Shown here: in pieces, positions 20,931-35,253 of the stretch
Layout of the letters: every line of letters starts with the position of its first letter
How positions within the stretch are numbered: position 1 is the stretch's first letter
From: a virus
Taxonomy: Duplodnaviria > Caudoviricetes
IMG/VR virus record: IMGVR_UViG_3300015245_000011
Span: 1-53,388 of that record
Reading direction: 5' to 3' (one strand)
Length of the DNA stretch: 53,388 nucleotides
Notes under the pieces: generated by a model
What the model was told of the DNA's origin: nothing
Database searches by the model: none
What the model saw: the letters and a program-made list of their open reading frames with translations, nothing else
Translations under genes and position numbers: made by a program

Positions 20931-20959
20931 TAGACACCTAGAATAGACTGTGTTAAAGT
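20931..20959 (+). promoter_or_regulatory. sigma70-type promoter for small RNA 1
   Basis: TAGACA-17 nt-TAAAGT with extended -10 TGn. Confidence 0.6.
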
Positions 20960-20965
20960 ACCAAC

Positions 20966-21062
20966 GGCTCTGAAGTAGCTCCCTGGAAGGGATTGAAACG
21001 AAGATGAGCTCTTCTGTGATATCGGCCGTACAGGCAAAACGATATCCAGTTACTTCAGAGCT
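20966..21062 (+). ncRNA. solitary CRISPR-repeat-derived small RNA 1 (candidate)
   Basis: CCCTGGAAGGGATTGAAACGA at 20981-21001; 14-bp closing stem 20967-20980/21048-21061; two internal hairpins. Confidence 0.65.
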
Positions 21063-22629
21063 AAATCCTCATCGGTCGCGTCAAAGATTTCTGTGACAAT
21101 TGCCACTCGACGCCTCTGAGCGTCAGCGATCCTGCGCCGGTCAACTCCGTCCACAACACTTCGCCTGTGCGTCCAATATCCCAGAAGAGTTCGTCTTCGA
21201 TCTGCGCTTCCACTCCTGATCCTGGATACGCCTGGGCGGTAAGTGTGACGCGCTTGGTTTGCCTGACGTGTTGTGGCATCCGGGCTGGTCCCAAAACAAA
21301 ATCTCCCACCACTTGTTGCCCAGCGTAGATGGCAAAGAACTCCGCCAGAAACCGGCGCAGGTAGGCCCGACGCATCGGTTGCGGCAGCGGCGGAAAGCGC
21401 ACCTGCCAAGGAATCGGTACGCCGTCATCGCGCAGGTCCCCCGTAAAGATGCGTTGCACGGCGGGTTGGGCCGCGAGCCCGGCCTGCGTATAGGGCAGGG
21501 CGCCAGGTTCGAGGAGCAGGTTGCAGGTCGCCCAGGGCGTTGGAAAGGTACAGATGGTCCAGGCTTTCTTGGTCACATCGAACACGAACACTCGGTCAAG
21601 CCCGGTACTTTGCGGCGTCGACGGACAGGCGCAGATATAGAGCGGCGGATTTTGGGATTGCGTGGCGACCGAGAGATGCGCCGCAGTATAGTTGAGCCCG
21701 GTAATGTCGTCATGGCCAAAAATATAGGGCCGAATGTTGTCCGAAATGACCTGATCGTTGAGACCATTAAAAAGTGCAAAGCCGCGGTGCGTCAGACGGA
21801 TCATCCCGAAGTTCGGAATGAACTGCACGGTGCGCCCGGCAATACAACCCATATCCGTTTTCACCTGCGTAATCGTGGGCGCCGCGCTGCCGCCAAAGGC
21901 CCCTGAGGCTTGATAGGTTGAGAAGTCTTTAAAGAGCACTAGGACGTTATCCGGGGAAATCCCTGATTCTGCGATCGTAAAGACCCCGATGCCTGTGCCC
22001 GATTGCCCGTCATCCTTGGCTACAAAGAGCTGGTTACCCACGGGCCACGAATGAAAGTTTTCCACGTCACTCTGGCGTATCGACGAGGGGCCATCATAGG
22101 TCGACGTCGTTTGGGCCGTATTCCAGGCCCATACGGCGTTCTGGTGGATGACCATCCACTTGGCGCCAGGGATCATGTCTGCTGCTGGATCGGTCGGAAA
22201 GATGCTGAAGCTCGCGCCGTTGGTCACGTAAGGCACGGTATAGCCATCCGTCATGAGCGTCTGGTCCAGAAAATTCAGCATCGTGGGCGTGTCGTACTGG
22301 AGTGCAAACGTCCCCAGCAGCGTCCAGGGCGTCTCGCTGCGGTAGAGTTTCTGCGTGCCGTCCACTTCACTGGTAATACGCAGGCGAAAGATCGACCCAT
22401 TATTGAGAGAGAGCGAGTTGAGGTCCAGCACACTTACCACAGTCGCCGGGATCGTCGGTGGGGCTTCCACCGTGACCACCCCATCGCGGACCCGCAGTGC
22501 GCCCGTCTGATCGAGCAAAAAGTTCTCGCAGCGCAGCAGCTCAGTCGGCTTCAGCGTCCAGGGTGAGGCGACGGTGTTCAGGCCTCCACTGAAATCTGCT
22601 TTGGTGACTGGTTTCAGATTCTCAGGCAT
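21061..22629 (-). CDS. tail tubular B / P22 gp10-like stabilisation protein
   Basis: DFSGGLN N-terminus, MGCIAGRTV motif, beta-rich; synteny. Confidence 0.7.
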   Translation of the reverse strand: MPENLKPVTKADFSGGLNTVASPWTLKPTELLRCENFLLDQTGALRVRDGVVTVEAPPTIPATVVSVLDLNSLSLNNGSIFRLRITSEVDGTQKLYRSETPWTLLGTFALQYDTPTMLNFLDQTLMTDGYTVPYVTNGASFSIFPTDPAADMIPGAKWMVIHQNAVWAWNTAQTTSTYDGPSSIRQSDVENFHSWPVGNQLFVAKDDGQSGTGIGVFTIAESGISPDNVLVLFKDFSTYQASGAFGGSAAPTITQVKTDMGCIAGRTVQFIPNFGMIRLTHRGFALFNGLNDQVISDNIRPYIFGHDDITGLNYTAAHLSVATQSQNPPLYICACPSTPQSTGLDRVFVFDVTKKAWTICTFPTPWATCNLLLEPGALPYTQAGLAAQPAVQRIFTGDLRDDGVPIPWQVRFPPLPQPMRRAYLRRFLAEFFAIYAGQQVVGDFVLGPARMPQHVRQTKRVTLTAQAYPGSGVEAQIEDELFWDIGRTGEVLWTELTGAGSLTLRGVEWQLSQKSLTRPMRI

Positions 22630-22638
22630 GCTGTGCTC

Positions 22639-23628
22639 TCATGGCACAATGGTGCCAAATCCACTACCATAAATAGGCCCACCAATATATGAACCGTAAG
22701 CCCTAACACTAAATGTACCATCAAGTTGCTGCCAAACAGGATCACCACAGATGTCTTTACAGGCTTCCAGAAAATCCTGCATCAAACTCTTGGCTTCTGC
22801 CCGGCTCTGCTCCGCCTCGCGCACCTTACTTAACACATACAGTTCCAATGGCGCCAGGAAGGCCGAGGGCAGCTCGACCGCATCCGTACTGAGACCCACG
22901 GGCAGTGGCCGACGCAAGCCCTTTAACCACACGCTACAGTGAGTCACCGGCGCGCCAATCTCATGCGTGCCAGGCCGCGTGCCCGCCCGGCCTCGCCTCA
23001 GCACCGAGACAACCTTGGTGGTCGCATTCACCAGGCGATACTCAATCAATTCACCTTCAATCCGTACCCACCCATAGGAGAGAAAATTGGTGGTATCGCT
23101 CACGGTAAACGACGTAACATTGGCTTGCGACAGCGCGACTGTCAGAGCAGTAACGGGATCAGTCTGGTTTGGGGCGCCGTAGAGCGACAGGTCCAGAGCC
23201 CCAGCCCGGCGATTCATGGAGTACGTCAGGGGCTGACCGACGTAGGCACTGGGGTAGATCCGCCACATCTCGTCCAGATACACGCACCGTAGTTGATTCA
23301 CCCACAGGGCTTCGACACTCACCCATTTTGAGTCGAGCGTGTATGACTCAGCCATATTGGTCGACGGAAAGACAAACCAGTCGGGGACGAGCCAGTTACA
23401 GCGCCTCGACATCTCCAGAATCCCATTCGTCAGCCAGCGATAGAGCGTCTGGGCTCTGAGGAACGACCCATCCAGATCAGGCTCAGGCTCGCCGGCGTCG
23501 TTGTACACCGGGTCCGGGATCTGGTCGCGGACACTGTTGATAATGGACGCGGCAGTCTCCACGGGTGTAAACGGATCGTAGACGCCAACAACTGCTTCGG
23601 CACTTAATACTGGAGGGATGTCAGCCAT
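22639..23628 (-). CDS. head-tail adaptor / tail tubular A-like protein
   Basis: IINSVRDQI...LYRWLTNG...ELPSAFLAPLELYVLSK pattern; upstream of the tube B gene. Confidence 0.6.
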   Translation of the reverse strand: MADIPPVLSAEAVVGVYDPFTPVETAASIINSVRDQIPDPVYNDAGEPEPDLDGSFLRAQTLYRWLTNGILEMSRRCNWLVPDWFVFPSTNMAESYTLDSKWVSVEALWVNQLRCVYLDEMWRIYPSAYVGQPLTYSMNRRAGALDLSLYGAPNQTDPVTALTVALSQANVTSFTVSDTTNFLSYGWVRIEGELIEYRLVNATTKVVSVLRRGRAGTRPGTHEIGAPVTHCSVWLKGLRRPLPVGLSTDAVELPSAFLAPLELYVLSKVREAEQSRAEAKSLMQDFLEACKDICGDPVWQQLDGTFSVRAYGSYIGGPIYGSGFGTIVP

Positions 23629-24320
23629 TAGCGCACCGCCTTTGTCTTAACCTCTTGAGACTCCCACCACGAACTAATATAGTCGTCATCCGTAATACCC
23701 TTGGTCATCAAGTGTATCGTCTCTGCAAGAGCCGTCGCGTAGACCGGGATGTGTGCCCGCTTACAGCGGAGAAAAAAGCTCAGGTCTTCGCCCCATTTGC
23801 CGATATGATCAAACATTTCTTCTGGTGGCTGACACAAACGCTCAAGCTTTTCTATCGCCATGCGGTGGATGAGCAAACACCCACCCCCAGCGGCATCCAC
23901 CTGGAAGCACGGCACCGTGGTGTCGTACTCCATGAACGGCATAAAGCCCTGGTCTGCCTCATCCCACACCCAGAGCATCGGGTGATGGGGTAAGGCCTTG
24001 TGGCGATAGATCGCGGTCAGCACAGGTAACTGATACTGTTGCTGTAACTTCACCATCTTGAACACGATATCTGGCTCCATCATGTGGTCGGTATCGGTCA
24101 TCCAGATCCAGTCCCCGCGCATCTCACTCACCAGAAAGTTCCTGGCACTGCTGTGCAGAGAGAATGTAGCGCGAGTATAGTGGATGGTCTCACCCTGGCC
24201 ACAGAGGAACTCCGTGTTAAACTCCCGCATCGCGCCCCAAGACCAACAGAAAGGCTCTGGCACTGAAGGAACTCCGCCAAGGTAGCCACACGAACCTAAG
24301 CATCTAAGTCGATCGAGCAT
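23628..24320 (-). CDS. glycosyltransferase family 2 (GT-A fold)
   Basis: ARN, WIWMTDTDH (DxD), GGGCLLIHR, GEDLSFF; SD AAGGAGG before ATG 24320. Confidence 0.85.
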   Translation of the reverse strand: MLDRLRCLGSCGYLGGVPSVPEPFCWSWGAMREFNTEFLCGQGETIHYTRATFSLHSSARNFLVSEMRGDWIWMTDTDHMMEPDIVFKMVKLQQQYQLPVLTAIYRHKALPHHPMLWVWDEADQGFMPFMEYDTTVPCFQVDAAGGGCLLIHRMAIEKLERLCQPPEEMFDHIGKWGEDLSFFLRCKRAHIPVYATALAETIHLMTKGITDDDYISSWWESQEVKTKAVR

Positions 24321-25402
24321 GCGCCCTCCTTGTGCCTGAGCACTTGCCCCACGACACTGAGAAACTCTCGCGTTGTCTGGAGAAACGTATGCTGCTTCGC
24401 CCACATCTTGCCGCGCCTTCCCAGGTCATGGCGCCATTTATAGTCGGTCAGCACATGCACGACATGCTCAGCAAAGGCTTCTAAGTGCTGGGATGGCGGT
24501 GAGGGACAGACATCAATAGCTTTGTCAAAGGCCAGCTCAAAACTATCACTAGGCGCGGTCACCACGGGCACGCCCAGCGCACAGGCTTCCATGACGGAGA
24601 GGGGCATTACTTCACACGGCATGTTGGGCTCTGAGGGATAGGCCAGGACTTGGGCGCGTGACAGGGCCTCAAGTACGACGTTGCGTGAAGCACCCTCGGG
24701 ATGCAGTTCGAGGGACATACCTGGTTGATACATCTCATCTTCCATCGCATGCCAGAGCCCTGGATGATGCTGTTTCACCGTGTCGAGACGGGTATACACC
24801 ACCACATGGGCCTTGTGAAACCGCCGCCGAATGAGCGGATAGGCTTTGAGGAGGAGGGACAGGCCCCGCTCAGCAGAGGTATGGTAAAAAATACGCCCCT
24901 CCACGGGCCGTGGCAGGGGATAGACGCCGTAGTCCCATCCATTCGTCACCGTGTACCAGGGAATATCCGGCGTGAGTGTTGAGAGATGCTGCGCGCTAAT
25001 GTCGGTCGAGGCAATGTAGGCATCGACGGGCTCCTGCGCCATACGCTCACTATGCGGTGGGGTGATGGTCTGGTGCCAGGCCAGACGAATAGCCGCCGGC
25101 CAACCGGTGAGGGGCGAGGCATCGTGGAAGGCTAGGGCGACGTCAGCAATCTCATCAAGCAGAGGGCCACCGGCCATCGGATGGGCTGAGAGTCCCGGGA
25201 GAATGTGTCCATCAACTCGCCAACAGGTATAGAACCGCACGGTATGACTTTGCCGGGCAAGCATACGCGCGAGACCAAAGGCTGTCACCTCTGTGCCTGT
25301 CAGACCACGAGGATCCAGGCAGAGGGCGCTGGCGTCCAGGGCGCGCACCTGTCCCTGCGCGTGTCCAAGGCTGTCGGCGGAAAGGAGGAAGTCGAATAAC
25401 AT
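24296..25402 (-). CDS. glycosyltransferase family 4 (GT-B fold)
   Basis: GLTGTE, FYHTSAERGL, EVMPLSVMEACALGVPVVT (Ex7E). Confidence 0.85.
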   Translation of the reverse strand: MLFDFLLSADSLGHAQGQVRALDASALCLDPRGLTGTEVTAFGLARMLARQSHTVRFYTCWRVDGHILPGLSAHPMAGGPLLDEIADVALAFHDASPLTGWPAAIRLAWHQTITPPHSERMAQEPVDAYIASTDISAQHLSTLTPDIPWYTVTNGWDYGVYPLPRPVEGRIFYHTSAERGLSLLLKAYPLIRRRFHKAHVVVYTRLDTVKQHHPGLWHAMEDEMYQPGMSLELHPEGASRNVVLEALSRAQVLAYPSEPNMPCEVMPLSVMEACALGVPVVTAPSDSFELAFDKAIDVCPSPPSQHLEAFAEHVVHVLTDYKWRHDLGRRGKMWAKQHTFLQTTREFLSVVGQVLRHKEGACSIDLDA

Positions 25403-25596
25403 TAGAGGGTTTCCAAGTTTTTCAAGACCACTTTAAAGGCATCAAGACTGTTGCGTATCGTCGGATCACTAATATCAATTCTGGCAGCGACAAGGCACAT
25501 CTGTTCCACCATCTCCATTAGTAACACTTTCAACTCTTTAGGAATTGGGCCGATGATGATGGGGTCAACTGGCGCCGGATCAACAGCGATGGCCAT
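25402..25596 (-). CDS. hypothetical protein
   Basis: Fills the gap between two GT genes. Confidence 0.5.
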   Translation of the reverse strand: MAIAVDPAPVDPIIIGPIPKELKVLLMEMVEQMCLVAARIDISDPTIRNSLDAFKVVLKNLETL

Positions 25597-25598
25597 AG

Positions 25599-26753
25599 CT
25601 AGAGTCCTTCTTCTGCGATCCAATCGCAGTACTGATCCACAACGTGTGCCCAGTCAAAGCGTTTCCGTGCCTCAGCCATCATGGGACCACGTATCTCTTC
25701 CTGCCCTTCCGGATGCACCATGAGATGCACCGCTGCCATGGCGTATCTCCGCAAAGTTAACGCATCTCTTTCCGCATCACCTTCAATAGCAATACCCGCA
25801 ACTTGGTACTCACTCGCTGCCCAGAGGGGATTCACAATTGGGATAGCCCCTAATGCTTGAGATTCAAGCAGTGAGATATAGCCCGTCTCAAGAAAGTTCG
25901 TAGGCGCGCACATAATCCCCGTCTGCAACCACTCCCTATACAACGCCGGTTGTCCCAGGCGTCCGCGTAGAAACACCCCTGGTTGCTGGGCGAGCTTTAC
26001 CGTACGCGCATGCTGCCAGCGCACTGATGCTCGGTGCGTGAGCTTGTCGAGATTATCCCAGCCGTAAAACACATGCAGCTCCGCATCGGGCACCAGGAAC
26101 CGTATCAGTCGAAACGCCTGTAGCAACCCCATGAGTCCACGATCCGGCGAGGAGGCGTACATGAGGCGGTGTGGATGACGCTCCGGCAGTCCCAAAACGC
26201 CAAGATCAAGTTCATCAATGAGATCAGCGCTTTCTATCGGCCACTCTTGATACGCGCAGGTATACTCGGCTTCAAGCAAAGTAATCAGATCGCCACGAAT
26301 GCCGTTCCGGGACTGCTCTACCAGATCAGCAAAGAGGGGATGCGTCTCCCGGAGATACTGGCAGTGTGTGGCACAGAGGCCGATAATGCGGTCAAGCTTG
26401 TCCGCCCACTCGTCTTTCCAGGGCTCAAGGGTGTCGACGTCCTGAAAGACGGCCCAGACAGACTGCTGCGGGTTGCAGCCAAATTGGTCAAGGAGTTCGA
26501 TCCCGCGTACCAAAATATAGATCCCTGCATGCGTAGGATTAAACCTGGCGAGGTCTTCCCAGATCACCCCACGGTGCAGACGTGTGACAGCGGCAGGGAG
26601 TGGGGCATAGACCGTCACACTATGCCCTCGCGCTGCCAGACGCCAGGCCATCTCACACACAAAGGTCTCAGAGCCGCCGATGCCAGGATCGTCGGGGGAC
26701 TGCCAATACCACGGCTCGTAGTGGCGAGGATTACAAATAAAAATGGTAGCCAC
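25599..26753 (-). CDS. glycosyltransferase family 4 (GT-B fold)
   Basis: GIGGSE...LAARGHSVTVY, YASSPDRGL, ETGYISLLESQALGAIPIV. Confidence 0.87.
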   Translation of the reverse strand: MATIFICNPRHYEPWYWQSPDDPGIGGSETFVCEMAWRLAARGHSVTVYAPLPAAVTRLHRGVIWEDLARFNPTHAGIYILVRGIELLDQFGCNPQQSVWAVFQDVDTLEPWKDEWADKLDRIIGLCATHCQYLRETHPLFADLVEQSRNGIRGDLITLLEAEYTCAYQEWPIESADLIDELDLGVLGLPERHPHRLMYASSPDRGLMGLLQAFRLIRFLVPDAELHVFYGWDNLDKLTHRASVRWQHARTVKLAQQPGVFLRGRLGQPALYREWLQTGIMCAPTNFLETGYISLLESQALGAIPIVNPLWAASEYQVAGIAIEGDAERDALTLRRYAMAAVHLMVHPEGQEEIRGPMMAEARKRFDWAHVVDQYCDWIAEEGL

Positions 26754-26790
26754 TTAGGATGCATCCTCTCGTTGGCGTAGGATAAAGATC

Positions 26791-27234
26791 CTAAATGCCC
26801 GGGATCGTATCGAGCACATAGTCAAACGTCACGACGTCTGTACCGCTGAGCGTCACAGCTACGCGTCCGAACGTGTACGTCTGCGCATCAGGAACCGGCC
26901 CTTCTAACAAGAACGTTTGATCCGTCCCTGTCCGCAGCACGATCTTGCTTCCAATGGTGCGGACCTGTGACGTGAACCCTGAGTCGTACGCAATCTGCAA
27001 CTCGTAGGTAGGGCCAACGGTGCCGTTGCCCGAGCCCCAGCCTTTCTGCCGCACAACGCAACGGCCGTAGGACACACCAGTTGGAAACTGCGCGACTGGC
27101 GTGGTGGTCACGGCCTGATCGGCGAGTTCAAAGTGATAGGCAATGGTAGGCGGCTGGTTGGAAGCCTGCCCGCCAGGAGCCACGGTAAAGGGATGGACGT
27201 GGGATTTGGTCCAGGCGCCAAGAGTGAATGCCAT
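26791..27234 (-). CDS. probable capsid decoration / minor structural protein
   Basis: Beta-rich 147 aa protein downstream of the capsid gene. Confidence 0.5.
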   Translation of the reverse strand: MAFTLGAWTKSHVHPFTVAPGGQASNQPPTIAYHFELADQAVTTTPVAQFPTGVSYGRCVVRQKGWGSGNGTVGPTYELQIAYDSGFTSQVRTIGSKIVLRTGTDQTFLLEGPVPDAQTYTFGRVAVTLSGTDVVTFDYVLDTIPGI

Positions 27235-27238
27235 GTAT

Positions 27239-27850: not shown

Positions 27851-27888
27851 GCTTGCCTCCTTGTAGAAGAATAGTCTGTACAAGGAGC

Positions 27889-27963: not shown

Positions 27964-28986
27964 CTACGCATTGCTTATCGTGGTTATACGAGCATGATTC
28001 CTTAAACTCAAGAACTGCAACTGTAACATCACGTAAACCCTGGTAATGGCCACATACTGGTTGCTTGGCTGGATGTATGGGTCCATGCGGAAGTGCATAT
28101 TAGGGTGAAAAATGGGCCGCACGTACTTTTCGGTGTACATCTGCATCTCACCACTCGGCACGAACTGGTCATGCAGGACAACCATCCGGTTAAACATCAG
28201 GTTCCGAAACCCGCCCCTGGTCGTCTCTTCATCTTCAATAAAACGCTGGTTATTGACCAGGAGTCCCCAGTAGCTATTCCACCCGGCCTGCGTGGTAATC
28301 CCCAGCGTCGGTTCTTCGTTGCCGAAGCTGCACTCGCCGTAGGCATACTGCATACCCGCCAGCGACAGGGCGGTACCTGCGGCAGAGCCCGCCAGGGTGT
28401 TGAGTGCGGCCATGGTTTGCGGACCAGCCCCACCGTTACACTCCCAGACAAAACCGGTCGTCGCGTTGTTCTGAATCGTCACGCCGGCGTAGGTCCCAGA
28501 CGCCGCAAGAGCAATAGGGACCCCGTCAATATCGATGGCGGTATTCTGGGGACTGGTACGCTGGGCGGCGCGGTTGAGCTTAATCAGCAAGGACGCGAAG
28601 GCAATCTCTTCCTTGATGCGCACCAGGTTGACGACGCCAGGAGGGCCCTGGTTCAAGATGGCGTCAATGATGGGAATGGCGCAGAGCTGGTTGTAGGCCC
28701 GCCACTGCAGTTCAGCTGGTTGGGCCGAATCGGTCACGTCCGTTGACAGGAGTTGCGTGCCCCAGAAAGCCCCGCCGGTTAATTCTTCCTGGTTAATGAG
28801 CGTCCAGACGATCGCTCCACCCTGAAACTTGCGGCCAAGACGCGTGAGGCGCCACCAGAAGGGGGAGGGCTTAAAGACGGCATCGACCAGTTGGGGCTGG
28901 AAGTACTTTTGGGTGACTCCGTTCGCCGTATTGATAAGGCTAATCGGTGGCTGAGAGAGTTGAGAACCTATCCCGCCAGCGGCCAT
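27964..28986 (-). CDS. major capsid protein
   Basis: 340 aa; follows a scaffold-like gene; strong SD AAAGGAGG; LVDAVFKPSPF and GFRNLMFN motifs seen in this class of coat proteins. Confidence 0.8.
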   Translation of the reverse strand: MAAGGIGSQLSQPPISLINTANGVTQKYFQPQLVDAVFKPSPFWWRLTRLGRKFQGGAIVWTLINQEELTGGAFWGTQLLSTDVTDSAQPAELQWRAYNQLCAIPIIDAILNQGPPGVVNLVRIKEEIAFASLLIKLNRAAQRTSPQNTAIDIDGVPIALAASGTYAGVTIQNNATTGFVWECNGGAGPQTMAALNTLAGSAAGTALSLAGMQYAYGECSFGNEEPTLGITTQAGWNSYWGLLVNNQRFIEDEETTRGGFRNLMFNRMVVLHDQFVPSGEMQMYTEKYVRPIFHPNMHFRMDPYIQPSNQYVAITRVYVMLQLQFLSLRNHARITTISNA

Positions 28987-29067
28987 AGTGGCCTCCTTTC
29001 AGAGTACCGCTCTGGCTCAGACCTTATGGGGGAAAGGAGCCAATAGGCGTGAAGCGAATACGCAGCA

Positions 29068-29817
29068 TCACGTATTCGGGTAGAGAAGTCCGATAATCTC
29101 TGGATCACTCATGGCCGCACTTTCCGCTTGCTCTATCGTGGTAAACTGCGGTTGCGGTAAGGGAATCGACTGCGGAGGCCCGTAGGGTGCATAGGGCACC
29201 TGCGGATGCATCATCAAGTCTTTCTGCGCTTGTTCCAGGCCGTCAGCTTTGCCAGCTTCTCTGGCAGTCGCCACGGCGCGGTCATAGGTCATCAGGCGAT
29301 ACGCATCCGCCAGATCGGGCTGGCGGAGCTTTTGCTGTTGGAACTCCAGCAGACGGGCGGGATCAAGGTTGGGATCCTGTTGTTTTAACTGTTCGATCCT
29401 CATAACCTGCGGAATCTGCGCCAGGCCCTGCAAAAGTTGCTGTTGCATGCGCATGATGTCATCGAGGCGCTTGTCGTTGGCCGTAGCCATCTCGAGTGCT
29501 TTGACGCCATTTTGATGCAGCGGGCCAAGCAGCGGATCAGTGTTGTAATCGATAGGATAGGCAGGGCGAGCGTTTGGATCAGACACAACAGGGTCAGGGG
29601 CAGCGGCAAGGGCCTGGGCGAGCCGATATTCGAGGGCCCTCTTTTCTTCCGCAAGGACTTCGGCACGCTGAGCAAAGCGAGCCGCTGTGTCTCTTGGGAC
29701 GACTGATTTACGAAGGTCGACCAATCGCTGGCCATACTCGCCCATATCCCTCAGTAACATCTCGTCAGGATACGCCTGAGGGTTTTGAATAACATCAGTC
29801 CAGTTGAGATCGGCCAT
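29068..29817 (-). CDS. scaffolding protein (putative)
   Basis: Helical, acidic, Gln-rich; directly upstream of the capsid gene. Confidence 0.6.
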   Translation of the reverse strand: MADLNWTDVIQNPQAYPDEMLLRDMGEYGQRLVDLRKSVVPRDTAARFAQRAEVLAEEKRALEYRLAQALAAAPDPVVSDPNARPAYPIDYNTDPLLGPLHQNGVKALEMATANDKRLDDIMRMQQQLLQGLAQIPQVMRIEQLKQQDPNLDPARLLEFQQQKLRQPDLADAYRLMTYDRAVATAREAGKADGLEQAQKDLMMHPQVPYAPYGPPQSIPLPQPQFTTIEQAESAAMSDPEIIGLLYPNT

Positions 29818-29995
29818 ACTGCTTTCTTTCTACCTGAATGTTTTCTTCGGATATAGCAATATCAGCATGCCCTCGTTGCCAATGTTCCCTGACTGCCTGT
29901 ACTGATTGAAGAATATCACCACAGGAACACGCGACGTAGCCTCCAGCAACACTCTTCGCATAGCTCTGCCACTCTGGTCGTGTGGTCATCGTCAT
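29795..29995 (-). CDS. small Zn-finger-like protein
   Basis: CSC...HWQRGH. Confidence 0.45.
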   Translation of the reverse strand: MTMTTRPEWQSYAKSVAGGYVACSCGDILQSVQAVREHWQRGHADIAISEENIQVERKQYGRSQLD

Positions 29996-29996
29996 A

Positions 29997-30398
29997 CTAT
30001 CCGCCTAACTGCGGCATGCCTGGTGCGCCAATATCGCCCCCACCCATCATTCCACCACCGGACGGCATTCCAGGCGGCGGCGCCGCAACAGGTTCAGCCG
30101 GTAGTGTCGCCGACTGTTCCTCAGCGGCTTTCAAGTGTACAAGCGCTGTCGCTAACTCTTTCGCTAGCTTTGGAGACCTGAGCGCATACCTCTGCATCAG
30201 TGTGCCAATCGCATCCTTCGCCTGGTTGAATAACGGCCCTTCCTGGCCTGGTGGGGCCGAAGACATCTTCTGGATGCCTCCCAGGTCAGGCGGCGGCGGT
30301 CCACCCATTCCTGGAGGGCCACCAGCGCCAGGAGGACCGCCCTTGCCCATACCTTGCAGGAGCTGAGCGAGCATATGTGGCGGTGGCATTGGGGCCAT
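29997..30398 (-). CDS. Gly/Pro/Met-rich head-module protein
   Basis: Low-complexity ends around a central helix pair; located between portal and scaffold. Confidence 0.6.
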   Translation of the reverse strand: MAPMPPPHMLAQLLQGMGKGGPPGAGGPPGMGGPPPPDLGGIQKMSSAPPGQEGPLFNQAKDAIGTLMQRYALRSPKLAKELATALVHLKAAEEQSATLPAEPVAAPPPGMPSGGGMMGGGDIGAPGMPQLGG

Positions 30399-30400
30399 GG

Positions 30401-30607
30401 CTAGCTCTTTCCCCCGCCAGGGAACTCTGGCTTCCAGTGATTGCCATGGCCTTCATCCCCACCACCAGCCGTAATCTGCGGCACGGTATGGCCTACCGGG
30501 TCCATAATGCCCAGTGGGTCAGGGGGAGTGCCAGCCATTGGGGAACGCACGGTTGCGTGATGGACGCCAGTTTCATAGAGCGGACTCACGATTTCGACTT
30601 CAGCCAC
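30401..30607 (-). CDS. small head-module protein
   Basis: SD AAGGAG before GTG; VAEVEIVSP... Confidence 0.5.
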   Translation of the reverse strand: MAEVEIVSPLYETGVHHATVRSPMAGTPPDPLGIMDPVGHTVPQITAGGGDEGHGNHWKPEFPGGGKS

Positions 30608-30703
30608 GGTGTTCTCCTTGTTATGTTTGTGGCGAGGCCAGCCCATATTCTGGGGGAAGATAGCTGGCCTCACCCCTAAAGCCGCGGGCTCCCGCAGCTC
30701 CAG

Positions 30704-30778
30704 CTACATCCGACGCCCTTTGCGACCTTTCTTCCGGCCACGACGCTCCAGTACAGTATGCTCTGGTTGGTTAGACAT
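30704..30778 (-). CDS. 24-aa Arg/Lys-rich peptide
   Basis: MSNQPEHTVLERRGRKKGRKGRRM; G-rich SD upstream. Confidence 0.5.
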   Translation of the reverse strand: MSNQPEHTVLERRGRKKGRKGRRM

Positions 30779-30863
30779 TGCTTCATCCCCCCTCTCAGGT
30801 GTCTCGGGCTAGAGAAAAATAGGACACAGATTAATGGTGCCTATAAGAGATTTTAATGTCAAG

Positions 30864-31100
30864 CTAATTGTTGTGCTCAGCGTCTTGCTTACGGCTTTCG
30901 ATAGACGCCTCTATGCTACGTTTCAACATCTCCTGAAACTCTTTCTTTCCGTGCTGCCTCTCGTAGTCATGTAGGGAGTATTTGGGGATGAAAAACGACG
31001 CTTCCCCTTCCCCATGCTTCCCACCACTGACTTCATAGGCTACTGAACCATCTTTGCCGCGCACTTCCCTGATATTGCTAACGCCGGTATCGTCTGGCAT
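30864..31100 (-). CDS. hypothetical protein
   Basis: SD AAGGA; abuts the upstream gene. Confidence 0.6.
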   Translation of the reverse strand: MPDDTGVSNIREVRGKDGSVAYEVSGGKHGEGEASFFIPKYSLHDYERQHGKKEFQEMLKRSIEASIESRKQDAEHNN

Positions 31101-31313
31101 TCACAATTCCTTCTTTGCTATATAGGCTTTAAGTATCCTTACAAGATGAAGACGCATGCGTTTTAATCTACGTTTTTCTTCCGAACCCTTACCGCTGCGT
31201 CCAGGTCGATATGGCGGTGGGTGAGGATTATAGTATCTACTCTCACGGCGGGATACCCATCCTGAACCATACTCAACCTTGACACGATGAATCTGTTCAT
31301 AGATGGTACTCAT
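31101..31313 (-). CDS. basic hypothetical protein
   Basis: SD AAGGAG. Confidence 0.55.
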   Translation of the reverse strand: MSTIYEQIHRVKVEYGSGWVSRRESRYYNPHPPPYRPGRSGKGSEEKRRLKRMRLHLVRILKAYIAKKEL

Positions 31314-31343
31314 AGCGGCTCTCCTTCGCCTACGCCTTCACAT

Positions 31344-31505
31344 TTAGACTTCTGGATGCTGCTCAGCAAGTGTACGTACTACAGCGGCATGCTCCGGTGG
31401 CAGCTGTACTGTGGCGGTTGCTTCCTTCGTATGCCCTGCCGCAAATGCTTGCAACGCCTGCCCAAGCAGCGTTGTTGCGAGTTGAAGAATCATAAGCCAG
31501 CTCAT
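31344..31505 (-). CDS. 53-aa hypothetical protein
   Basis: ATGA overlap with the portal stop; MSWLMILQLATTLLGQALQAF... Confidence 0.5.
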   Translation of the reverse strand: MSWLMILQLATTLLGQALQAFAAGHTKEATATVQLPPEHAAVVRTLAEQHPEV

Positions 31506-33265
31506 TTTCTACTCCTACTACTACTGCCCTGTTTCGCTTTCGCAGCAGCCTGCAACTCCAGGGCTTTCTGGTTCCGTTGTGCAATCGCCTTTCCACCAGG
31601 AAATTCTAAGATAGCAAGCAAATCTTCATCGGAAGACATTCTCCCCATCTTGGCCAGGGCCATGGCCAGGCGTTTCACCATCGTTTTGCTGTTAATACTA
31701 AAACTTGCTGGATCAACCACCGCCGCATACTGCTTCCAGTCACGCAGCGGTTCCCACAAGACCGGCTCCCACTGCTCGCCTTGCGCAAAGGGCAAGACAC
31801 GAGGCACGGTATAGAACTGTCCCATGCGGGCGACGATCTTGGAGACGAGTTTATGGACGGCCATAAAGAGATAACGAGCTCGTAAGCGCGTGAGACCCAT
31901 CGACTGACTTATTTCTGTTTCGGTAAGCTCAGCAGACACGTTGCCGCGACCTTGTTGGCCAGCGCGAGAAGGTTGGTGGCCAAGCTGCTCACGCATGATA
32001 CTCCGCAGACGTCCACCGTGTTGGATGAGGTCGGCTGGCATCGGGGGTGGGCGCTCGGCCCGAACTTCTGAGCCAGCGCGCTTAAAAATGACCTGGCCAG
32101 GGATATCAGCAAAGGTGCGAGAATTGATGCCAGAATTAGCATCAGCAATCCAAAAAGCTTTCTGCATACGCAGGGCATTTTCCACCACCAGGGATTCGAG
32201 TTTATCGCTGGCTCGTTGTAACTCAAGGAGTTCCCCGACGATTGATTTCTCTGGCCAGAACCTGTGGACCGTCGGTTGCAGCGTCACACGGATGACATCA
32301 AAGCCGTCACCGTAGGGCATCGGCCCATCGTAGAGAATGACATTGGAGGTCGCCTGGATAAAGCGGCCCTGCGGGTATTTGTAGCGCACGGTGCGACGGA
32401 GACGGTCGACGCCCTCGGGATCTTTCAGCATCTCTGGAATGACTTCGAGCGTGGCGTCTTTGACACGCGCCGTAATGACGGAGACTCTCGTATCCATGCC
32501 GTGCGTCGGCACCGGCGCATTGACGGGATAGAGGGGCGTCAGCAGCCCAACACCCGACGGGCGATCCATCGGCATCGTCATAGGCATGGGGTCTGAAGGC
32601 CTGGCAGCATCAGGCTTCACACGCCAGCCCTGGTCAGGCCAGCGTTGACGTACCTCGTTAATGTCCAGGACGTCCTGTGTAATGCAGTAGCGCCAATCCT
32701 CATCATCCGTAGCGTAGGGGTCTGGGAAGACCGTTTGCGGTGGGCGGACACGGACGATGACTTCGCCCTGGCCCTGAAGACGCAGCGGGTCCCACGGCAC
32801 CTCAAAGAACCCGCAGGGCCAGATGGCCGCATCAGCACAGGCTTCCAGGATGGTAATATCGAGAAAGTAGCGCTGCCAGTAAGCGCGAATAGCTTTCTCC
32901 ACCTGTTCTTCCCGCGTACCGGTCACAGGATTCGAGGTGACATAGACCGTGGGAGAATTATCGGTGAGATCGGAGAGTTCGGTAAGAATGAGCCGCTTCA
33001 TCTCGTTAATCTGGATGGGGGATTTCCAGGACGGTAACACATCTGGCCAATAATCTCCCCAGTAGCCGCGCTCCCAGTCTCTCCAAATGTTTGTAGGCAA
33101 AGTCTTTTGTCGAGCGTTTAGGGCATCTAGATACAAACCATTAACCCACTGACTGAGTAACTCTTCCCCTTGCCGCTGTTCGCCGACAGCTCGGTCAACG
33201 CGAGCATTTTCACTGTTATAGTCATGGCGACCGTTAACCGTAACGCGGGGAGAAGCAGTAGCCAC
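31502..33265 (-). CDS. portal protein (P22-like)
   Basis: 587 aa; position after terminase; DAAIWPCGFFEVPWDP, VFPDP, ILYDGPMPY, ELQRASDKL motifs. Confidence 0.8.
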   Translation of the reverse strand: MATASPRVTVNGRHDYNSENARVDRAVGEQRQGEELLSQWVNGLYLDALNARQKTLPTNIWRDWERGYWGDYWPDVLPSWKSPIQINEMKRLILTELSDLTDNSPTVYVTSNPVTGTREEQVEKAIRAYWQRYFLDITILEACADAAIWPCGFFEVPWDPLRLQGQGEVIVRVRPPQTVFPDPYATDDEDWRYCITQDVLDINEVRQRWPDQGWRVKPDAARPSDPMPMTMPMDRPSGVGLLTPLYPVNAPVPTHGMDTRVSVITARVKDATLEVIPEMLKDPEGVDRLRRTVRYKYPQGRFIQATSNVILYDGPMPYGDGFDVIRVTLQPTVHRFWPEKSIVGELLELQRASDKLESLVVENALRMQKAFWIADANSGINSRTFADIPGQVIFKRAGSEVRAERPPPMPADLIQHGGRLRSIMREQLGHQPSRAGQQGRGNVSAELTETEISQSMGLTRLRARYLFMAVHKLVSKIVARMGQFYTVPRVLPFAQGEQWEPVLWEPLRDWKQYAAVVDPASFSINSKTMVKRLAMALAKMGRMSSDEDLLAILEFPGGKAIAQRNQKALELQAAAKAKQGSSSRSRK

Positions 33266-33274
33266 TAGAAACTC

Positions 33275-34288
33275 CTACAAGGGAATATCGCCCATAAGAT
33301 GGGCAAGCTGCTCACTCAGGGCGCGCAAGTGATCAAGCCATGTTTGCGAAACATCTTGGCCAGCAGGACGCTCGATATAGCGTTGTAAAATATCGCCATG
33401 CTCTCTCGAGATGCGAGCAATATCAATACCGGAATGCTGGGCTTCTTGCAGATCACGATTGATCTCCTGCGACAAGCCCCAGAATTGGTCATCAAGCTCC
33501 TCTGACGCCGCAGGAGGCGGGATCGATCTCGTTCTCAAAGCCTGTTCGGCGGCACCACTGCGATACGAGCTCGCCATAGCCCTACTCAATTGACGATGCA
33601 ATTCAGTCAGCTCCTGAGCCTCGCCATAATTCTCCATTGTTGCCGCTGCATGTTGGATATCGCCGTAGATGTGCTCAAAGCCACTGGTGTCTATGCCCTG
33701 GCTGCGTAAATGCGCCAGGCGTTCACGAATCCCGCTGTGGAGGAGTCCGGTGCTGCTGGTATCGGGCATATTAGGTGGCATGTCTATGAGGCCGCTACGA
33801 TACTCCGAGGGCATCATAGTCTGCCGGACGTCATCGTCAACGTTGAACTCGAACGGTTCTTGGCCTATCGGCGCATCAGCGCGGTACAGTTGCTCTCTTG
33901 GCCTGGGTGTTGTGAGACGCGTACCTGGAAGGCCACCTTCCTGGAGTGCCCGCATGCGTGCTACCGCTGCGTCGGTGCTCCGTCCGGCAGTCTCTGTCAG
34001 CGCCGGCAGGCCAGGCGTTGGCAGCGTGCGGCGAGCCGGCATCCCTAGTTCCTGTACTGGCGCCTGGATACCGCGGTACTGGCTAAGGAACGGCGCCAGA
34101 ATCATGGCAATCTGACTGATCGGATCAGCGGGATCCCCGAGCGGTAACGCCTCAACACCACCCTGCTCGGCCCGCTCCGTGCGCGAGAATGGGCCGCTAA
34201 AGGGGCTCCCAGCATACAACGCGGTATCCTCAGGCAGTCCTCGACTTGTGAGTCGCGTGAGTGCACTGATCCAGTCATTGTCGGCCAT
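33275..34288 (-). CDS. hypothetical protein
   Basis: Long ORF in the late operon. Confidence 0.65.
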   Translation of the reverse strand: MADNDWISALTRLTSRGLPEDTALYAGSPFSGPFSRTERAEQGGVEALPLGDPADPISQIAMILAPFLSQYRGIQAPVQELGMPARRTLPTPGLPALTETAGRSTDAAVARMRALQEGGLPGTRLTTPRPREQLYRADAPIGQEPFEFNVDDDVRQTMMPSEYRSGLIDMPPNMPDTSSTGLLHSGIRERLAHLRSQGIDTSGFEHIYGDIQHAAATMENYGEAQELTELHRQLSRAMASSYRSGAAEQALRTRSIPPPAASEELDDQFWGLSQEINRDLQEAQHSGIDIARISREHGDILQRYIERPAGQDVSQTWLDHLRALSEQLAHLMGDIPL

Positions 34289-34339
34289 GAACACCCACCC
34301 CTGAACAACTTAAAGAGGGTACATATTCAACACAGTCAT

Positions 34340-34513
34340 TCATGTACAGCAAACGCATGCATGCAAAAGATCCATGCATAAACACTCGCATGAAACTCTT
34401 GCATGCAAAAGATTTACATACACACATGCGCATGCATTGAGATAACTCATATTCTATGAGCCTACAGAGAAAAAACAGTACGAGTCATTTTTTCTATGCA
34501 TGTGCATGCATGT
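34340..34513. repeat. CATG/ATGCAT-rich tract with a 14-bp direct repeat
   Basis: 11 CATG counted in about 175 bp; TGCATGCAAAAGAT at 34358-34371 and 34400-34413. Confidence 0.8.
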
Positions 34514-35097
34514 CACCGCGTTTGAAAGAAACCGTAGGGATCATCGTCGCCACCGGCCACAGGAATCGGCCGCTCCTGTCCTGGCACCATCGCGACACCC
34601 TCGCCAAGGCCCATGCGTCGGCGATATTCGAGGGCGCATTCGTTACTATCGACTAAATGCACATAACCGGCCACGCCGCCCTGTCCGAGTCGGGTCTGCA
34701 TCGTGCGCGGGCGATCCGTCACGAGCACCCACTCATGCGAGGTGCCGCACACCATACAGAGCCAGTGGCGCTGATTATGTGGCGTACAGGAGGGGCAGGC
34801 GCAGGCTGAGCCCACAAGTAACCGGGCTTCCCACGCAGCATCCTTTTGTCCTGGCAACATGAAGGAGCCATCGGCGCGCTGCTGAATCATCCCGGCATCG
34901 CGGTAGGTATGCATGAGCTGGAGGAGCTGGGCAAGTTGGGCTTGCGGATCAAAGGGCGGCGGGGGCTGTCGGTCGACAATCAGGGGCTGACTTTCCGCTG
35001 ACGAGGTGACCACATCCTCAAGGATATCCTCGTCCGTCTCGCTGTCCGCTGGTTCGTCCTCTGGCGGATCATATTTAGGCGCATTGTATTTTGGCAT
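34513..35097 (-). CDS. hypothetical Zn-binding protein
   Basis: CACPSC...CMVC...H; acidic N-terminus. Confidence 0.6.
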   Translation of the reverse strand: MPKYNAPKYDPPEDEPADSETDEDILEDVVTSSAESQPLIVDRQPPPPFDPQAQLAQLLQLMHTYRDAGMIQQRADGSFMLPGQKDAAWEARLLVGSACACPSCTPHNQRHWLCMVCGTSHEWVLVTDRPRTMQTRLGQGGVAGYVHLVDSNECALEYRRRMGLGEGVAMVPGQERPIPVAGGDDDPYGFFQTR

Positions 35098-35125
35098 GAT
35101 GTTTGCAACCTATAACATTATAGCA

Positions 35126-35155
35126 TTGTGCCATCTTTACAAAGGATGCTATGCT
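35126..35155 (+). promoter_or_regulatory. putative promoter for small RNA 2
   Basis: TTGTGC-18 nt-TATGCT with extended -10 TGn. Confidence 0.5.
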
Positions 35156-35160
35156 CCTTC

Positions 35161-35253
35161 TGGGCGTGGCTACGGTACCCTGGAAGGGATTGAAACGATC
35201 TTAGCGTACGACGGTACGGTACGTTCCCGTACCGTTGCCGTACCCACCGCCCA
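35161..35253 (+). ncRNA. solitary CRISPR-repeat-derived small RNA 2 (candidate)
   Basis: CCCTGGAAGGGATTGAAACGA at 35178-35198; closing stem 35161-35177/35236-35253; internal 9-bp hairpin. Confidence 0.6.

Follow-up and report, generated by a model that had tools for sequence, protein, structure and literature searches.

[quoted passage not shown] They have been described in the Sulfolobus portogloboviruses SPV1 and SPV2 (Medvedeva et al. 2019; PMC6858448) and in phages and prophages (Faure et al. 2019, as cited in PMC6858448 and PMC11656645). RNA anti-CRISPRs (Racrs) arise from a single repeat-like element that lies between phage genes and has its own promoter, and these small structured RNAs rely on recognition of their stem-loop by host Cas6 (Camara-Wilpert et al. 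2023; PMC10651486). Finally, phages (Cracr; Liu et al., 10.1101/2024.10.29.618823) and the CreA and CreR mini-arrays of hosts (Shmakov et al., 10.1101/2023.03.03.530964) produce crRNA-like RNAs whose repeats are degenerate and which give host Cas proteins new targets. Here we describe two loci in a 53,388-nucleotide stretch of viral DNA (the window) that, on balance, we take to be phage-borne single-spacer crRNA genes arming the type I-D Cascade of the host against sibling phages. The carrier is a soil-type, podovirus-like bacterial phage for which no cultured relative was found.

The loci share a 21-nucleotide sequence, CCCTGGAAGGGATTGAAACGA, present in exact copies on the + strand at positions 20981–21001 and 35178–35198. 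This pair, 14 kb apart, had been picked out in an earlier sequence-only reading and was confirmed: the window holds no further match even at up to three mismatches, two matches were reached in none of 100 dinucleotide shuffles (none being expected by chance), and, the 77-nucleotide terminal repeat aside, it is the sole dispersed pair of 100% identity among the pairs listed. Both copies are flanked by − strand open reading frames (in the gap 20931–21060 and in the gap after 35097), and the flanks of the two loci are unrelated to each other. The intergenic position claimed for both copies holds at locus 1; locus 2 runs past the motif into a − strand zinc-ribbon-like open reading frame that begins at 35201.

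The first 19 nucleotides of the motif are the exact 3′ end, a short hairpin followed by ATTGAAAC, of CRISPR repeats of 36–37 nucleotides, which bears out the earlier supposition of a class 1 repeat. The proposed search against CRISPR arrays yielded 30 matches in genome_contigs, among them 13 array-bearing stretches with the 19-mer as repeat end; such arrays occur in at least ten public genomes and hold 3 to 110 copies at a spacing of about 72–76 nucleotides. Because taxa differ in the 5′ half of the repeat, the hairpin and handle are the shared part. Type I-D cas genes adjoin the arrays in two of the three flanks examined, the neighbors being Csc2/Cas7d, Csc1/Cas5d, Cas4 and Cas1d (above the I-D cut-off) in one (L024) and Cas4 and Cas1d in the other (L030). 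None of 294 spacers from the retrieved arrays matched the phage. The 53-kb record has no match to the Cas6 profile PF01881, and it is for this one family, the only one searched, that the earlier statement that no cas gene is visible stands.

Both repeat halves are embedded in predicted RNAs that are closed by a stem and whose predicted starts fall on the first stem base (Table 1); for unit 1 we infer a start at 20966, some 7 nucleotides past the promoter-like site. The closing stem of unit 1 has 14 base pairs, including two G-U pairs (the 106-nucleotide fold has z = −6.0), and that of unit 2 has 13, none of them G-U, and exceeds shuffles by only a small margin (z = −2.5 to −2.6; −2.6 for a 111-nucleotide fold). 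Minimum free energies are −42.8 kcal/mol for the sense versus −38.6 kcal/mol for the antisense strand of unit 1, and −42.0 versus −41.1 kcal/mol for unit 2. The proposed stems are thus real, and G-U pairs that work only on the + strand, also proposed, are found at locus 1 and not at locus 2. Similarly, an extended −10 promoter was predicted at locus 1, whereas the one at locus 2 is visible by eye and the promoter search listed another, weak site there (35091–35118). Predicted folds and promoter sites nonetheless agree with the view that these are small + strand RNA genes with promoters of their own and a terminal stem.

Table 1. Coordinates of the two units, their targets and neighboring genes in the window
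Feature	Position	Strand	Basis or remark
Unit 1 promoter-like site (TAGACA, 17-nt spacer, TG-extended TAAAGT)	20931–20959	+	1 site; 0.4 expected in shuffles
Unit 1, predicted RNA of ~97 nt	20966–21062	+	motif match and fold
Unit 1, 5′ arm	20966–20980	+	
Unit 1, repeat hairpin CCCTGGAAGGG	20981–20991	+	
Unit 1, 8-nt handle ATTGAAAC	20992–20999	+	
Unit 1, 36-nt spacer, coding EDELFCDIGRTG in target gene's frame	21000–21035	+	sequence comparison
Unit 1, linker with small hairpin	21036–21047	+	
Unit 1, 3′ arm	about 21048–21062	+	final 2 nt overlap stop codon of 522-aa gene
522-aa late (structural-region) gene, target of spacer 1	21061–22629	−	no Pfam or PHROG family
Own protospacer copy plus 3 PAM-position nt	21163–21201	−	protospacer 21198 down to 21163; codons E478–G489
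Protospacer for L035 spacer, peptide HHATVRSPMAGT	30527–30565	−	30562 down to 30527; GTC at 30565–30563
Insertion of ~75 nt (extended −10, 5′ arm and repeat half of unit 2)	35122–35197	+	alignments with L035, L038, L162
Unit 2, extended −10 TGCTATGCT (TG-C-TATGCT)	35147–35155	+	read by eye, no tool prediction
Unit 2, predicted RNA of ~91 nt	35162–35252	+	motif match and fold
Unit 2, 5′ arm	35162–35175	+	
Unit 2, hairpin	35178–35188	+	
Unit 2, handle	35189–35196	+	
Unit 2, 36 nt in spacer position	35197–35232	+	native sequence, antisense to zinc-ribbon gene end
Unit 2, 3′ arm	35236–35252	+	inside zinc-ribbon gene; conserved coding sequence
79-aa zinc-ribbon-like ORF, two CxxC pairs	35201–35440	−	read from sequence

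Unit 1 is absent from the one relative that covers its site (1/1), in which the genes abut, and the insertion at locus 2 is absent from all three relatives (L035, L038 and L162). The units are thus insertions specific to a lineage, which accords with the guide reading. Conceivably, the units are functionless scars, that is, fragments of host arrays gained by spacer-protospacer recombination and under no selection as RNAs. Phage protospacers are known to recombine with array spacers (Varble 2019, as cited in PMC7099407), a recombinational origin of phage mini-arrays is discussed in PMC7099407, the units are sporadic among relatives, and the precise junction of repeat and native phage sequence at locus 2 is what such a crossover would produce. 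We nevertheless consider scars highly improbable. The same functional 19-nucleotide half is kept at two loci with unrelated flanks, and the promoters are positioned for transcription to start at the stem. Over four units the closing stems hold 9 G-U pairs among 73, usable on the repeat-sense strand only in three of the four, and folding favors the sense over the antisense strand in every one. Moreover, unrelated viral contigs (L034/L037) show the same architecture, as do, with a different repeat variant and one compensatory change, seven further contigs. Another contig, L036, has no nearby homologue (21/36) and no convincing stem, which counts against the guide reading.

The spacer of unit 1 is an inverted, diverged copy of part of the adjacent 522-aa gene, matching it at 30 of 36 positions (maximum 24 in 300 shuffles), and the homology fades past about 36 nucleotides. 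All six mismatches, at positions 6, 9, 18, 24, 27 and 30, fall on third codon positions. When every sixth base is ignored the phage's own copy differs from the spacer at two positions only, so self-protection at locus 1 would rest on the PAM alone. For type I-D the PAM is 5′-GTN/GTH at −3 to −1 on the non-target strand, and spacers measure 35–36 nucleotides (PMC10212523). The PAM position of the phage's own copy (21201–21199) reads ATC (Ile477). The corresponding codon specifies valine, and hence is GTN, in all nine of the closest homologues (at least 76% identity), valine codons always being GTN. In one relative, L162, the spacer matches at 28 of 36 positions (maximum 24 in 200 shuffles), including positions 1–9, with GTA in the PAM position; this is the best non-self match, and no perfect target was found. 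Equally, the ATC change could have let the phage evade an array of the host itself, and the unit might later have been captured from that array.

An independent second case is the related phage L035, which has a unit of the same kind at a different site; the 36 nucleotides past its handle encode HHATVRSPMAGT, a peptide found identically in a downstream gene of the window. This spacer matches the window gene at 27 of 36 positions with a flanking GTC (maximum 25 in 200 shuffles), L160 at 28 of 36 with GTC (shuffle maximum 24) and L157 at 27 of 36 with GTG (shuffle maximum 23). Thus, relatives carry spacers against each other. The L034/L037 unit is a weaker, borderline case, with 25 of 36 positions matching a segment about 100 nucleotides downstream that is flanked by GTC. 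A related virus, L033, which has a 53-nucleotide near-identical segment in common with the window, carries the full form, a degenerate mini-array of four repeats of the same family.

These observations bear on the function that the sequence-only reading had assigned to the units, that of Racr-type decoys. Stem-closed RNAs with a Cas6 hairpin and handle would titrate Cas6d, Cas5d and Cas7d, and the aberrant complexes would weaken host immunity of type I-D (or of a co-resident type III system), the spacer-like parts being remnants of repeat capture. Phage solitary repeat units do act in this manner, the stem-loop being the essential part (PMC10651486), and an RNA route is plausible given that just one protein anti-CRISPR is known for type I-D (PMC10212523). 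The hairpin and handle are the only part common to the two window units, each copy has its own early-type promoter, and locus 2 has no acquired spacer. Also, hairpins are predicted to hide the spacers in part (in L035, positions 22–36 of the spacer would be covered by the 3′ arm), which makes a guide role awkward and would suit a stable decoy. We regard decoys as unlikely, however. A decoy has no need of 36 nucleotides in which the reading-frame pattern of a phage gene is preserved, and it leaves unexplained both the loss of GTN in the carrier alone and the reciprocal spacers between relatives. Described Racrs match full-length repeats, candidates having been defined at 90% coverage or more of a known repeat (SRUFinder), whereas the window units have 19 of about 37 nucleotides, and a closing stem does not figure in the available description of Racrs (PMC10651486). 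The decoy function is thus not supported as stated, because the signature is that of a guide against sibling phages instead of a solitary repeat lacking a spacer: recognizable spacers with PAM logic are present in unit 1 and in the L035 unit, the homologues of phage genes are of spacer length, their differences are synonymous, and GTN is found in relatives and not in the phage's own copy. The fit of this pattern to published viral mini-arrays (PMC6858448; PMC11656645) strengthens the guide reading.

No acquired spacer was found at locus 2, and GTN with a matching seed occurs there in none of the three relatives available. The spacer position covers the last ten or so codons and the stop codon of the zinc-ribbon open reading frame, which had no match in Pfam or PHROG and has homologous tails in L035, L038 and L162. 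Since unit 2 could pair without a mismatch with the end of this gene, it might be a cis-antisense RNA to that end and to the late transcript; alternatively, both units might be crRNA-like RNAs that bring a non-cutting Cascade close to genes of the phage itself, in the way that CreA, CreR and Cracr act at promoters. Such self-regulation would tune late expression or, in sense-oriented units, process late mRNA. The L035 and L034/L037 units lie on the strand of their flanking genes, where Cas6 cutting would split a polycistronic RNA. In the L033 mini-array, spacer 2 is similar to the start and ribosome-binding site of a gene lying 260 nucleotides downstream, and there is ample documentation of crRNA-like regulators that have partial matches (10.1101/2023.03.03.530964; 10.1101/2024.10.29.618823). 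We think self-regulation improbable, given that the carrier's site at locus 1 is without the PAM required for Cascade binding and lies inside the 3′ end of a gene rather than at a promoter, that orientation to the genes is not conserved (two units antisense, in the window, and two sense), and that the units are missing from close relatives having the same genes. CreA, CreR and, for systems given as V-A, I-F, I-E, I-C and I-B (I-D not among them in the available text), Cracr target host cas or toxin promoters through partial matches, whereas in the window the match to a phage structural-region gene extends along the entire spacer.

The best reading is therefore a truncated-repeat, stem-closed variant of the viral mini-array. 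Like mini-arrays, the units occupy an intergenic location in a virus without the cas family searched, have a repeat (its 3′ 19 nucleotides) identical to those of hosts, and include one spacer of normal length that matches a gene near the unit in related viruses, with the carrier's own copy altered. Unlike mini-arrays, they have a single repeat cut to its 3′ end, with neither a leader nor a second repeat downstream, a stem formed over a long range closes the RNA in place of that second repeat, and the "spacer" of unit 2 is native flanking sequence. They also differ from the Sulfolobus virus arrays in being of type I-D and in a bacterial podovirus-like phage.

In the gene layout that we propose, a sigma-70 type promoter precedes the 5′ arm, the 3′ end of a host type I-D repeat (Cas6 hairpin plus 8-nucleotide AUUGAAAC handle), the 36-nucleotide spacer and a 3′ arm that would pair back to the 5′ arm. 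Host RNA polymerase would make a + strand RNA of about 90–97 nucleotides early, antisense to the late operon; host Cas6d would cleave past the hairpin; and the type I-D Cascade would be loaded with the handle and spacer RNA, its 3′ end trimmed like that of native I-D crRNAs. The complex would then attack co-infecting or superinfecting relatives with GTN beside a matching sequence, the carrier being spared at locus 1 by ATC in its own PAM position and at locus 2 by the repeat itself, which fills that position. The closing stem would stand in for the missing second repeat, most likely by giving a compact, exonuclease-resistant primary transcript with a correctly folded repeat hairpin, and it may keep the 5′ fragment, with its bound Cas6, attached to the guide's 3′ end. 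With a single repeat there would be no repeat-repeat recombination, which deletes mini-array spacers; a single upstream repeat is not known to suffice for type I-D.

In phage free-standing homing endonuclease genes and in synthetic CRISPR gene drives a cassette lies at or near the cleavage site and the carrier allele is immune. The units would be similar, as cassettes at or within about 200 nucleotides of a site cleaved in genomes that lack them, with the difference that the nuclease would be the host Cascade; the comparison is an analogy only, repair-driven copying of the cassette being hypothetical. Most likely, the CRISPR machinery of the host is borrowed by the phage to attack its relatives rather than jammed.

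The 21-mer CCCTGGAAGGGATTGAAACGA occurs twice in the window, both times on the + strand as the sequence-only reading had reported, and a motif scan found no further match at three or fewer mismatches, with none expected by chance. The record is a complete virus genome of 53,388 bp with 77-nt direct terminal repeats, and both copies are housed in gaps in a long block of – strand genes. At locus 2, the claim that the element lies between genes holds for the motif, which sits in an intergenic gap, but not for what follows it: the remainder of the unit runs inside a 79-aa zinc-ribbon-like ORF, and its 3′ arm is thus coding sequence. No match to Cas6 (PF01881) was found in the complete 53-kb record, and a Pfam search of 20 larger ORFs of the window detected no Cas family.

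Coordinates of the units, their parts and neighboring features (window positions unless a contig is named)
Feature	Sequence	Position	Strand
Unit 1	Window	20966-21062	+
Unit 2	Window	35162-35252	+
21-mer, locus 1	Window	20981-21001	+
21-mer, locus 2	Window	35178-35198	+
TG-C-TATGCT, locus 2	Window	35147-35155	+
Predicted start, locus 1	Window	20966	+
Predicted start, locus 2	Window	35162	+
Predicted Cas6d cleavage point, units 1 and 2	Window	GGG/AUUGAAAC	+
ATG of 30-codon ORF, locus 1	Window	21004	+
Spacer 1	Window	21000-21035	+
Segment of the 522-aa gene matching spacer 1	Window	21198-21163	-
522-aa gene	Window	21061-22629	-
Extra bases, locus 2	Window	35122-35197	
Zinc-ribbon-like ORF, overlap with unit 2	Window	from 35201	-
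Pectate-lyase-like tailspike	Window	18465-20930	-
P22-like portal	Window	31502-33265	-
Large terminase	Window	36306-38015	-
Site equivalent to that of the L035 unit	Window	30621-30679	
tRNA-Ser(GCU)-like gene	L160	~3640-3725	reverse complement
Degenerate mini-CRISPR array	L033	11150-11400	-
Solitary repeats abutting tRNA 3′-half copies	L052	1408-1462, 2653-2700	
53-nt stretch	Window	10156-10208	
Counterpart of the 53-nt stretch	L033	2606-2658	
HNH endonuclease ORF	Window	10238-10792	+
Tandem 42-nt repeat	Window	34351-34434	
Region with 67-nt direct repeat pair	Window	49251-49500	
int-alpA RNA	Window	49727-49792	+

Several other features of the window were noted. An int-alpA RNA was its sole Rfam match at gathering score (40.6 bits against 35.8), and no integrase was found among 10 ORFs searched. 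The – strand late genes are interrupted by an AT-rich HNH endonuclease ORF (Pfam HNH, 1.8e-11) on the + strand; a 53-nt stretch upstream of this ORF is 96% identical to a stretch of L033, an otherwise unrelated viral contig, that likewise precedes a small ORF. By eye this stretch can be folded as a stem closing two hairpins; possibly it represents a conserved element associated with mobile HNH genes. A GCATGCA-rich tandem repeat of 42 nt (74% identical) lies just upstream of a 194-aa gene near locus 2, and a pair of 67-nt direct repeats (70%) flanks the 49.3–49.5-kb region.

An exact scan of prokaryotic genomes, one per species, returned the first 19 nt of the motif in 30 stretches: 13 arrays (3 to 110 copies at a spacing of ~72–76 nt), three stretches with two copies and 14 with one. 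The expected link to CRISPR repeats was borne out, the 19-mer being identical to the 3′ end of a 36- to 37-nt repeat in all 13 arrays. The 5′ half of the repeat varies between taxa (Desulfacinum, Desulfobacteraceae, Desulfococcaceae, Moorella, a Planctomycetia MAG, Moduliflexus and others), and the part carried by the phage is therefore the conserved hairpin and the last 8 nt. Both ATTGAAAC and the hairpin CCC-TGGAA-GGG are identical to their counterparts in the array repeats. The hairpin is present in the MFE structures of both units, where a U-A pair lengthens it. The units are not full repeats: they lack ~18 nt of the 5′ part, and that the repeat is a host's is what we infer from a match of 19 of 36–37 nt. 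Single copies of the 19-mer followed by CTGG were seen in one cyanobacterial and two Melainabacteria MAGs (L004, L028 and L031), the two Melainabacteria copies sharing a conserved context of ~55 nt; these may be host crRNA-like regulators or last array repeats.

In two of the three flanks examined, the arrays adjoin type I-D cas genes. One flank (L024) encodes Csc2 (3.9e-80), Csc1 (4.6e-57), Cas4 and Cas1d (399.7 bits, cut-off 385), a second (L030) encodes Cas4 and Cas1d (395.3 bits, cut-off 385), and the third (L008) has no cas gene within the 6.6 kb examined. The array spacers are 35–41 nt long, and all 294 of them match the window over 18 nt at most. According to the accessible text of an account of type I-D systems (PMC10212523), Cas6d cleaves 3′ of the stem-loop to give an 8-nt 5′ handle, spacers are 35–36 nt, 3′ trimming brings native crRNAs to 39–45 nt, and the PAM on the non-target strand is 5′-GTN, or GTH in one species. 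In the same text a single anti-CRISPR is known for type I-D, and the retention of Cas6d in the complex is an open question.

Each unit appears to have its own promoter. At locus 1 a promoter scan identified a promoter-like site with a TG-extended –10; at locus 2 such a –10 was read by eye, and the scan listed another, weaker site. The start predicted 7 nt past the –10 is at both loci the first base of the 5′ arm, which in the predicted folds pairs with a 3′ arm ~80–90 nt downstream (14 bp at locus 1, 13 bp at locus 2). Compared with shuffled sequences, the fold is strong at locus 1 (z = –6.0) and modest at locus 2 (z = –2.6). Four units taken together have only the 19-mer in common. That the start falls on the first base of the stem, that nine of the 73 closing-stem pairs of these four are G-U and that the sense strand folds better than the antisense strand in each of them support the view that the closing stem may be under RNA-level selection on the repeat-sense strand. 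The spacers themselves are predicted to be partly paired; in the unit of L035, a related phage contig, the 3′ arm would span spacer positions 22–36.

Other explanations of the shared sequence were considered and rejected. A ribosome-binding site was suggested by GGAAGGGA within the motif followed by an ATG at locus 1, and an ATG is also found in the unit of L036, another viral contig; locus 2 lacks a start codon and has a stop within five codons. A DNA operator or late-promoter element would be represented by two copies only, and such a reading is unnecessary because the first 19 nt of the 21-mer match the ends of CRISPR repeats in many genomes exactly. An intrinsic terminator was set aside, neither locus having a terminator-like site. 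No tRNA was found, and the only known RNA family returned for the units, by a relaxed Rfam search, was CRISPR-DR9 at sub-threshold scores (17.3 and 15.6 bits, the gathering score being 45; last 10 nt only). A MITE or transposon with terminal inverted repeats was discarded since the arms do not coincide with insertion boundaries and the 3′ arm of locus 2 is ancestral coding sequence.

Comparison with related phage contigs indicates that both elements are additions. The locus 2 element is absent from two close relatives (L035 and L038, 74–83% nucleotide identity) and from the more distant L162; ~75 extra bases in the window hold the –10, the 5′ arm and the repeat half, and the sequence 3′ of the motif aligns with the tail of the zinc-ribbon gene of the relatives. 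At locus 1, L162 is the sole relative that spans the site, L155 ending before it and L156 being only 41% identical in the tailspike N-terminus. In L162 the upstream stop and the next start are one base apart, and because the genes abut there, all of the 130-nt spacer region at locus 1 of the window is extra. L035 carries the 19-mer at a third site, on the late-gene strand and within a 26-bp closing stem, where the window has only a hairpin and a further relative, L160, has a gene resembling tRNA-Ser(GCU), recognized by eye and running opposite to the late genes (window equivalent 30621–30664); these intergenic sites therefore seem to accept small RNA genes. Only eight weak sites emerged when the relatives were scanned for other handle-like motifs, a degenerate scan of the viral contigs found no DNA coding EDELFWDIG, and searches with the portal protein and with locus 1 DNA recovered no cultured phage relative.

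What follows the handle at locus 1 is informative. Spacer 1 matches, in inverted orientation, the coding strand of the 522-aa gene at 30 of 36 positions (shuffle maximum 24, n = 300). It reads EDELFCDIGRTG, as against EDELFWDIGRTG in the gene, and the differences (positions 6, 9, 18, 24, 27 and 30) all fall on third codon positions; by eye, the similarity fades past ~36 nt. As judged from these substitutions, spacer 1 looks like a spacer taken from the orthologous gene of a related phage. In the window's own copy the PAM position is ATC (Ile477). In an alignment of 93 homologues, the nine that are at least 76% identical all have Val, and hence GTN, at this codon, and among these ten proteins Ile is found in the window's only. 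L162 has GTA followed by a 28/36 match, above the shuffle maximum and perfect over the first nine positions. No perfect target was found for the spacers. The ATC change could also have arisen as an escape from the array of a host, with that repeat-spacer unit being captured afterward.

The L035 unit provides a second case. The 36 nt past its handle code HHATVRSPMAGT, the peptide encoded by the gene just downstream of the L035-unit site in the window, in L160 and in L157, another relative. The spacer matches the window at 27 of 36 positions (flank GTC), L160 at 28 (GTC) and L157 at 27 (GTG), all above the shuffle maxima, and the mismatches leave the peptide unchanged, as in an AGT/TCC serine switch. 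A sibling phage therefore carries a spacer against the window's lineage; its own protospacer copy lies past the end of the contig. Locus 2 has no acquired spacer: its spacer position is the native antisense of the gene it abuts, there is no second copy (18/36), and neither GTN nor a seed match was found at the site in the available relatives.

Units in other viral contigs give a mixed picture. Two unrelated contigs (L034 and L037) share an identical element with a 20-bp stem (three G-U pairs), whose spacer matches a GTC-flanked segment ~100 nt downstream at 25 of 36 positions, a match that beats shuffles in a 3-kb search interval and ties with them in a 6-kb one. The L036 spacer has no nearby homologue (21/36). 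L033 contains a degenerate mini-CRISPR array of four repeats of the same family, ending in ...GAAAC, ...GAAAT, ...GAAAG and ...GAAAC; its spacer 2 is similar to the region of the ribosome-binding site and start of a gene lying ~260 nt downstream. A second class, in at least seven viral contigs (L051, L052, L065, L071, L099, L109 and L112), differs in the loop of the repeat half: CCCTACTAGGGATTGAAAC lies inside a perfect 27-bp stem with one compensatory G-C/A-T change, the loop past the handle is 20 or 41 nt, and no spacer homology was found in these contigs. A scan for CCCN5GGGATTGAAAC returned at least 82 distinct single-motif sites, most of which would be expected by chance for a pattern of 14 bases. 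The only site whose nearby homologue scored above all 100 shuffles was in L052; it was rejected as a spacer case, being a copy of a tRNA 3′ half with homology beyond 36 nt. Full-length solitary repeats of the cyanobacterial ATTGAAAC type abut such tRNA 3′-half copies in L052, L045, L072 and L143; the L052 match (32/36, flank GTC) runs past 36 nt, and the arrangement is more suggestive of att-site or tRNA-fragment biology than of a spacer.

Both viral mini-arrays and solitary repeats have been described before. In the accessible parts of two reports (PMC6858448; PMC11656645), mini-arrays target, through their spacers, nearby genes in close relatives, the copy in the carrier is mutated, and targeting is mutual; by sequence, unit 1 and the L035 unit would fit this pattern point for point. 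Shared with mini-arrays are, in unit 1 and the L035 unit, a spacer as long as those of arrays that matches related viruses (the spacer position of unit 2 holds native sequence) and, in unit 1, an altered site in the carrier (ATC instead of GTN). Unlike mini-arrays, in which two or three repeats flank one or two spacers, each locus here has one repeat half, cut to the 19 nt for Cas6 and the handle, with a closing stem in place of a second repeat, none being present in the sequence past the spacers at either locus. In Cracr and CreA-CreR, a spacer is partly complementary (PAM-proximal, at least 9 nt) to the promoter of a host cas or toxin gene, whereas here the match is to a phage gene over 36 nt, and the spacer regions have no match of 13 nt or more beyond chance level in the I-D loci examined. 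The available portion of a Cracr survey (10.1101/2024.10.29.618823) lists types V-A, I-F, I-E, I-C and I-B. Our literature search, based on the accessible text of articles, turned up no description of a stem-closed half repeat with a spacer and no type I-D viral units.

On balance, we consider it probable that the units are single-spacer crRNA genes with which the phage arms the type I-D Cascade of its host against sibling phages. The sequence-only reading had instead proposed decoy crRNAs (Racrs). That proposal survives in part: the hairpin and cleavage site are retained, and Cas6 could bind. Racrs and solitary repeat units match a full-length repeat and lack a spacer; here the match is to 19 of 36–37 nt, and unit 1 and the L035 unit have a spacer with a PAM pattern. 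A decoy, which would inhibit CRISPR interference through aberrant Cas complexes, requires the hairpin only, according to the part of PMC10651486 available, and locus 2 lacks an acquired spacer. Because there is in addition no perfect target, the ATC is ambiguous and the spacers are predicted to be partly paired, we retain a decoy role, which could coexist with that of a guide, as an unlikely but serious alternative.

If the units are guides, a single upstream half repeat could suffice for a crRNA, since native I-D crRNAs lose the 3′ repeat part by trimming. The closing stem would most likely stabilize the primary transcript and keep the repeat hairpin folded. It could also tether the Cas6-bound 5′ fragment to the 3′ end of the guide after cleavage, restoring with one repeat the topology that a full crRNA has, an idea that we disfavor because the 3′ arm of the L035 unit covers spacer positions 22–36. 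Having one repeat would avoid loss of the spacer through repeat-repeat recombination, a cost discussed in PMC7099407.

A bolder and, in our judgment, improbable extension is that the units act as natural gene drives in phage populations, powered by the host. The cassette of promoter and half repeat would have been inserted exactly at its target (locus 2) or less than ~200 nt away (locus 1, L035 and L034). During mixed infection the type I-D Cascade of the host would cut sibling genomes lacking the cassette, and recombinational repair from the carrier genome would copy cassette and immune allele into the cut siblings. Free-standing homing endonuclease genes spread in this manner, and synthetic CRISPR drives share the layout. 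The likeness to a homing element rests on the position of the cassette at or near its own target and on the immunity of the carrier allele. In the accessible text of Medvedeva et al. (PMC6858448), the proximity of spacer and target was noted as unexplained; drive, if true, would explain why the spacers of viral mini-arrays target sites next to the array.

Finally, a half repeat, one spacer and a closing stem may be all that a phage needs to exploit the type I CRISPR system of a host, in a unit smaller than any viral mini-array in the literature consulted. Surveys would miss such halves because, as far as the accessible descriptions go, SRUFinder requires at least 90% repeat identity and coverage and the mini-array pipeline a coverage of 0.8. 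Concrete sets of guide, target and escape are supplied here for type I-D, and if a half repeat and a stem yield a functional crRNA, tools for type I-D could adopt this compact design. Among the solitary repeats currently interpreted as RNA anti-CRISPR decoys, some may instead be guides in conflicts between phages.
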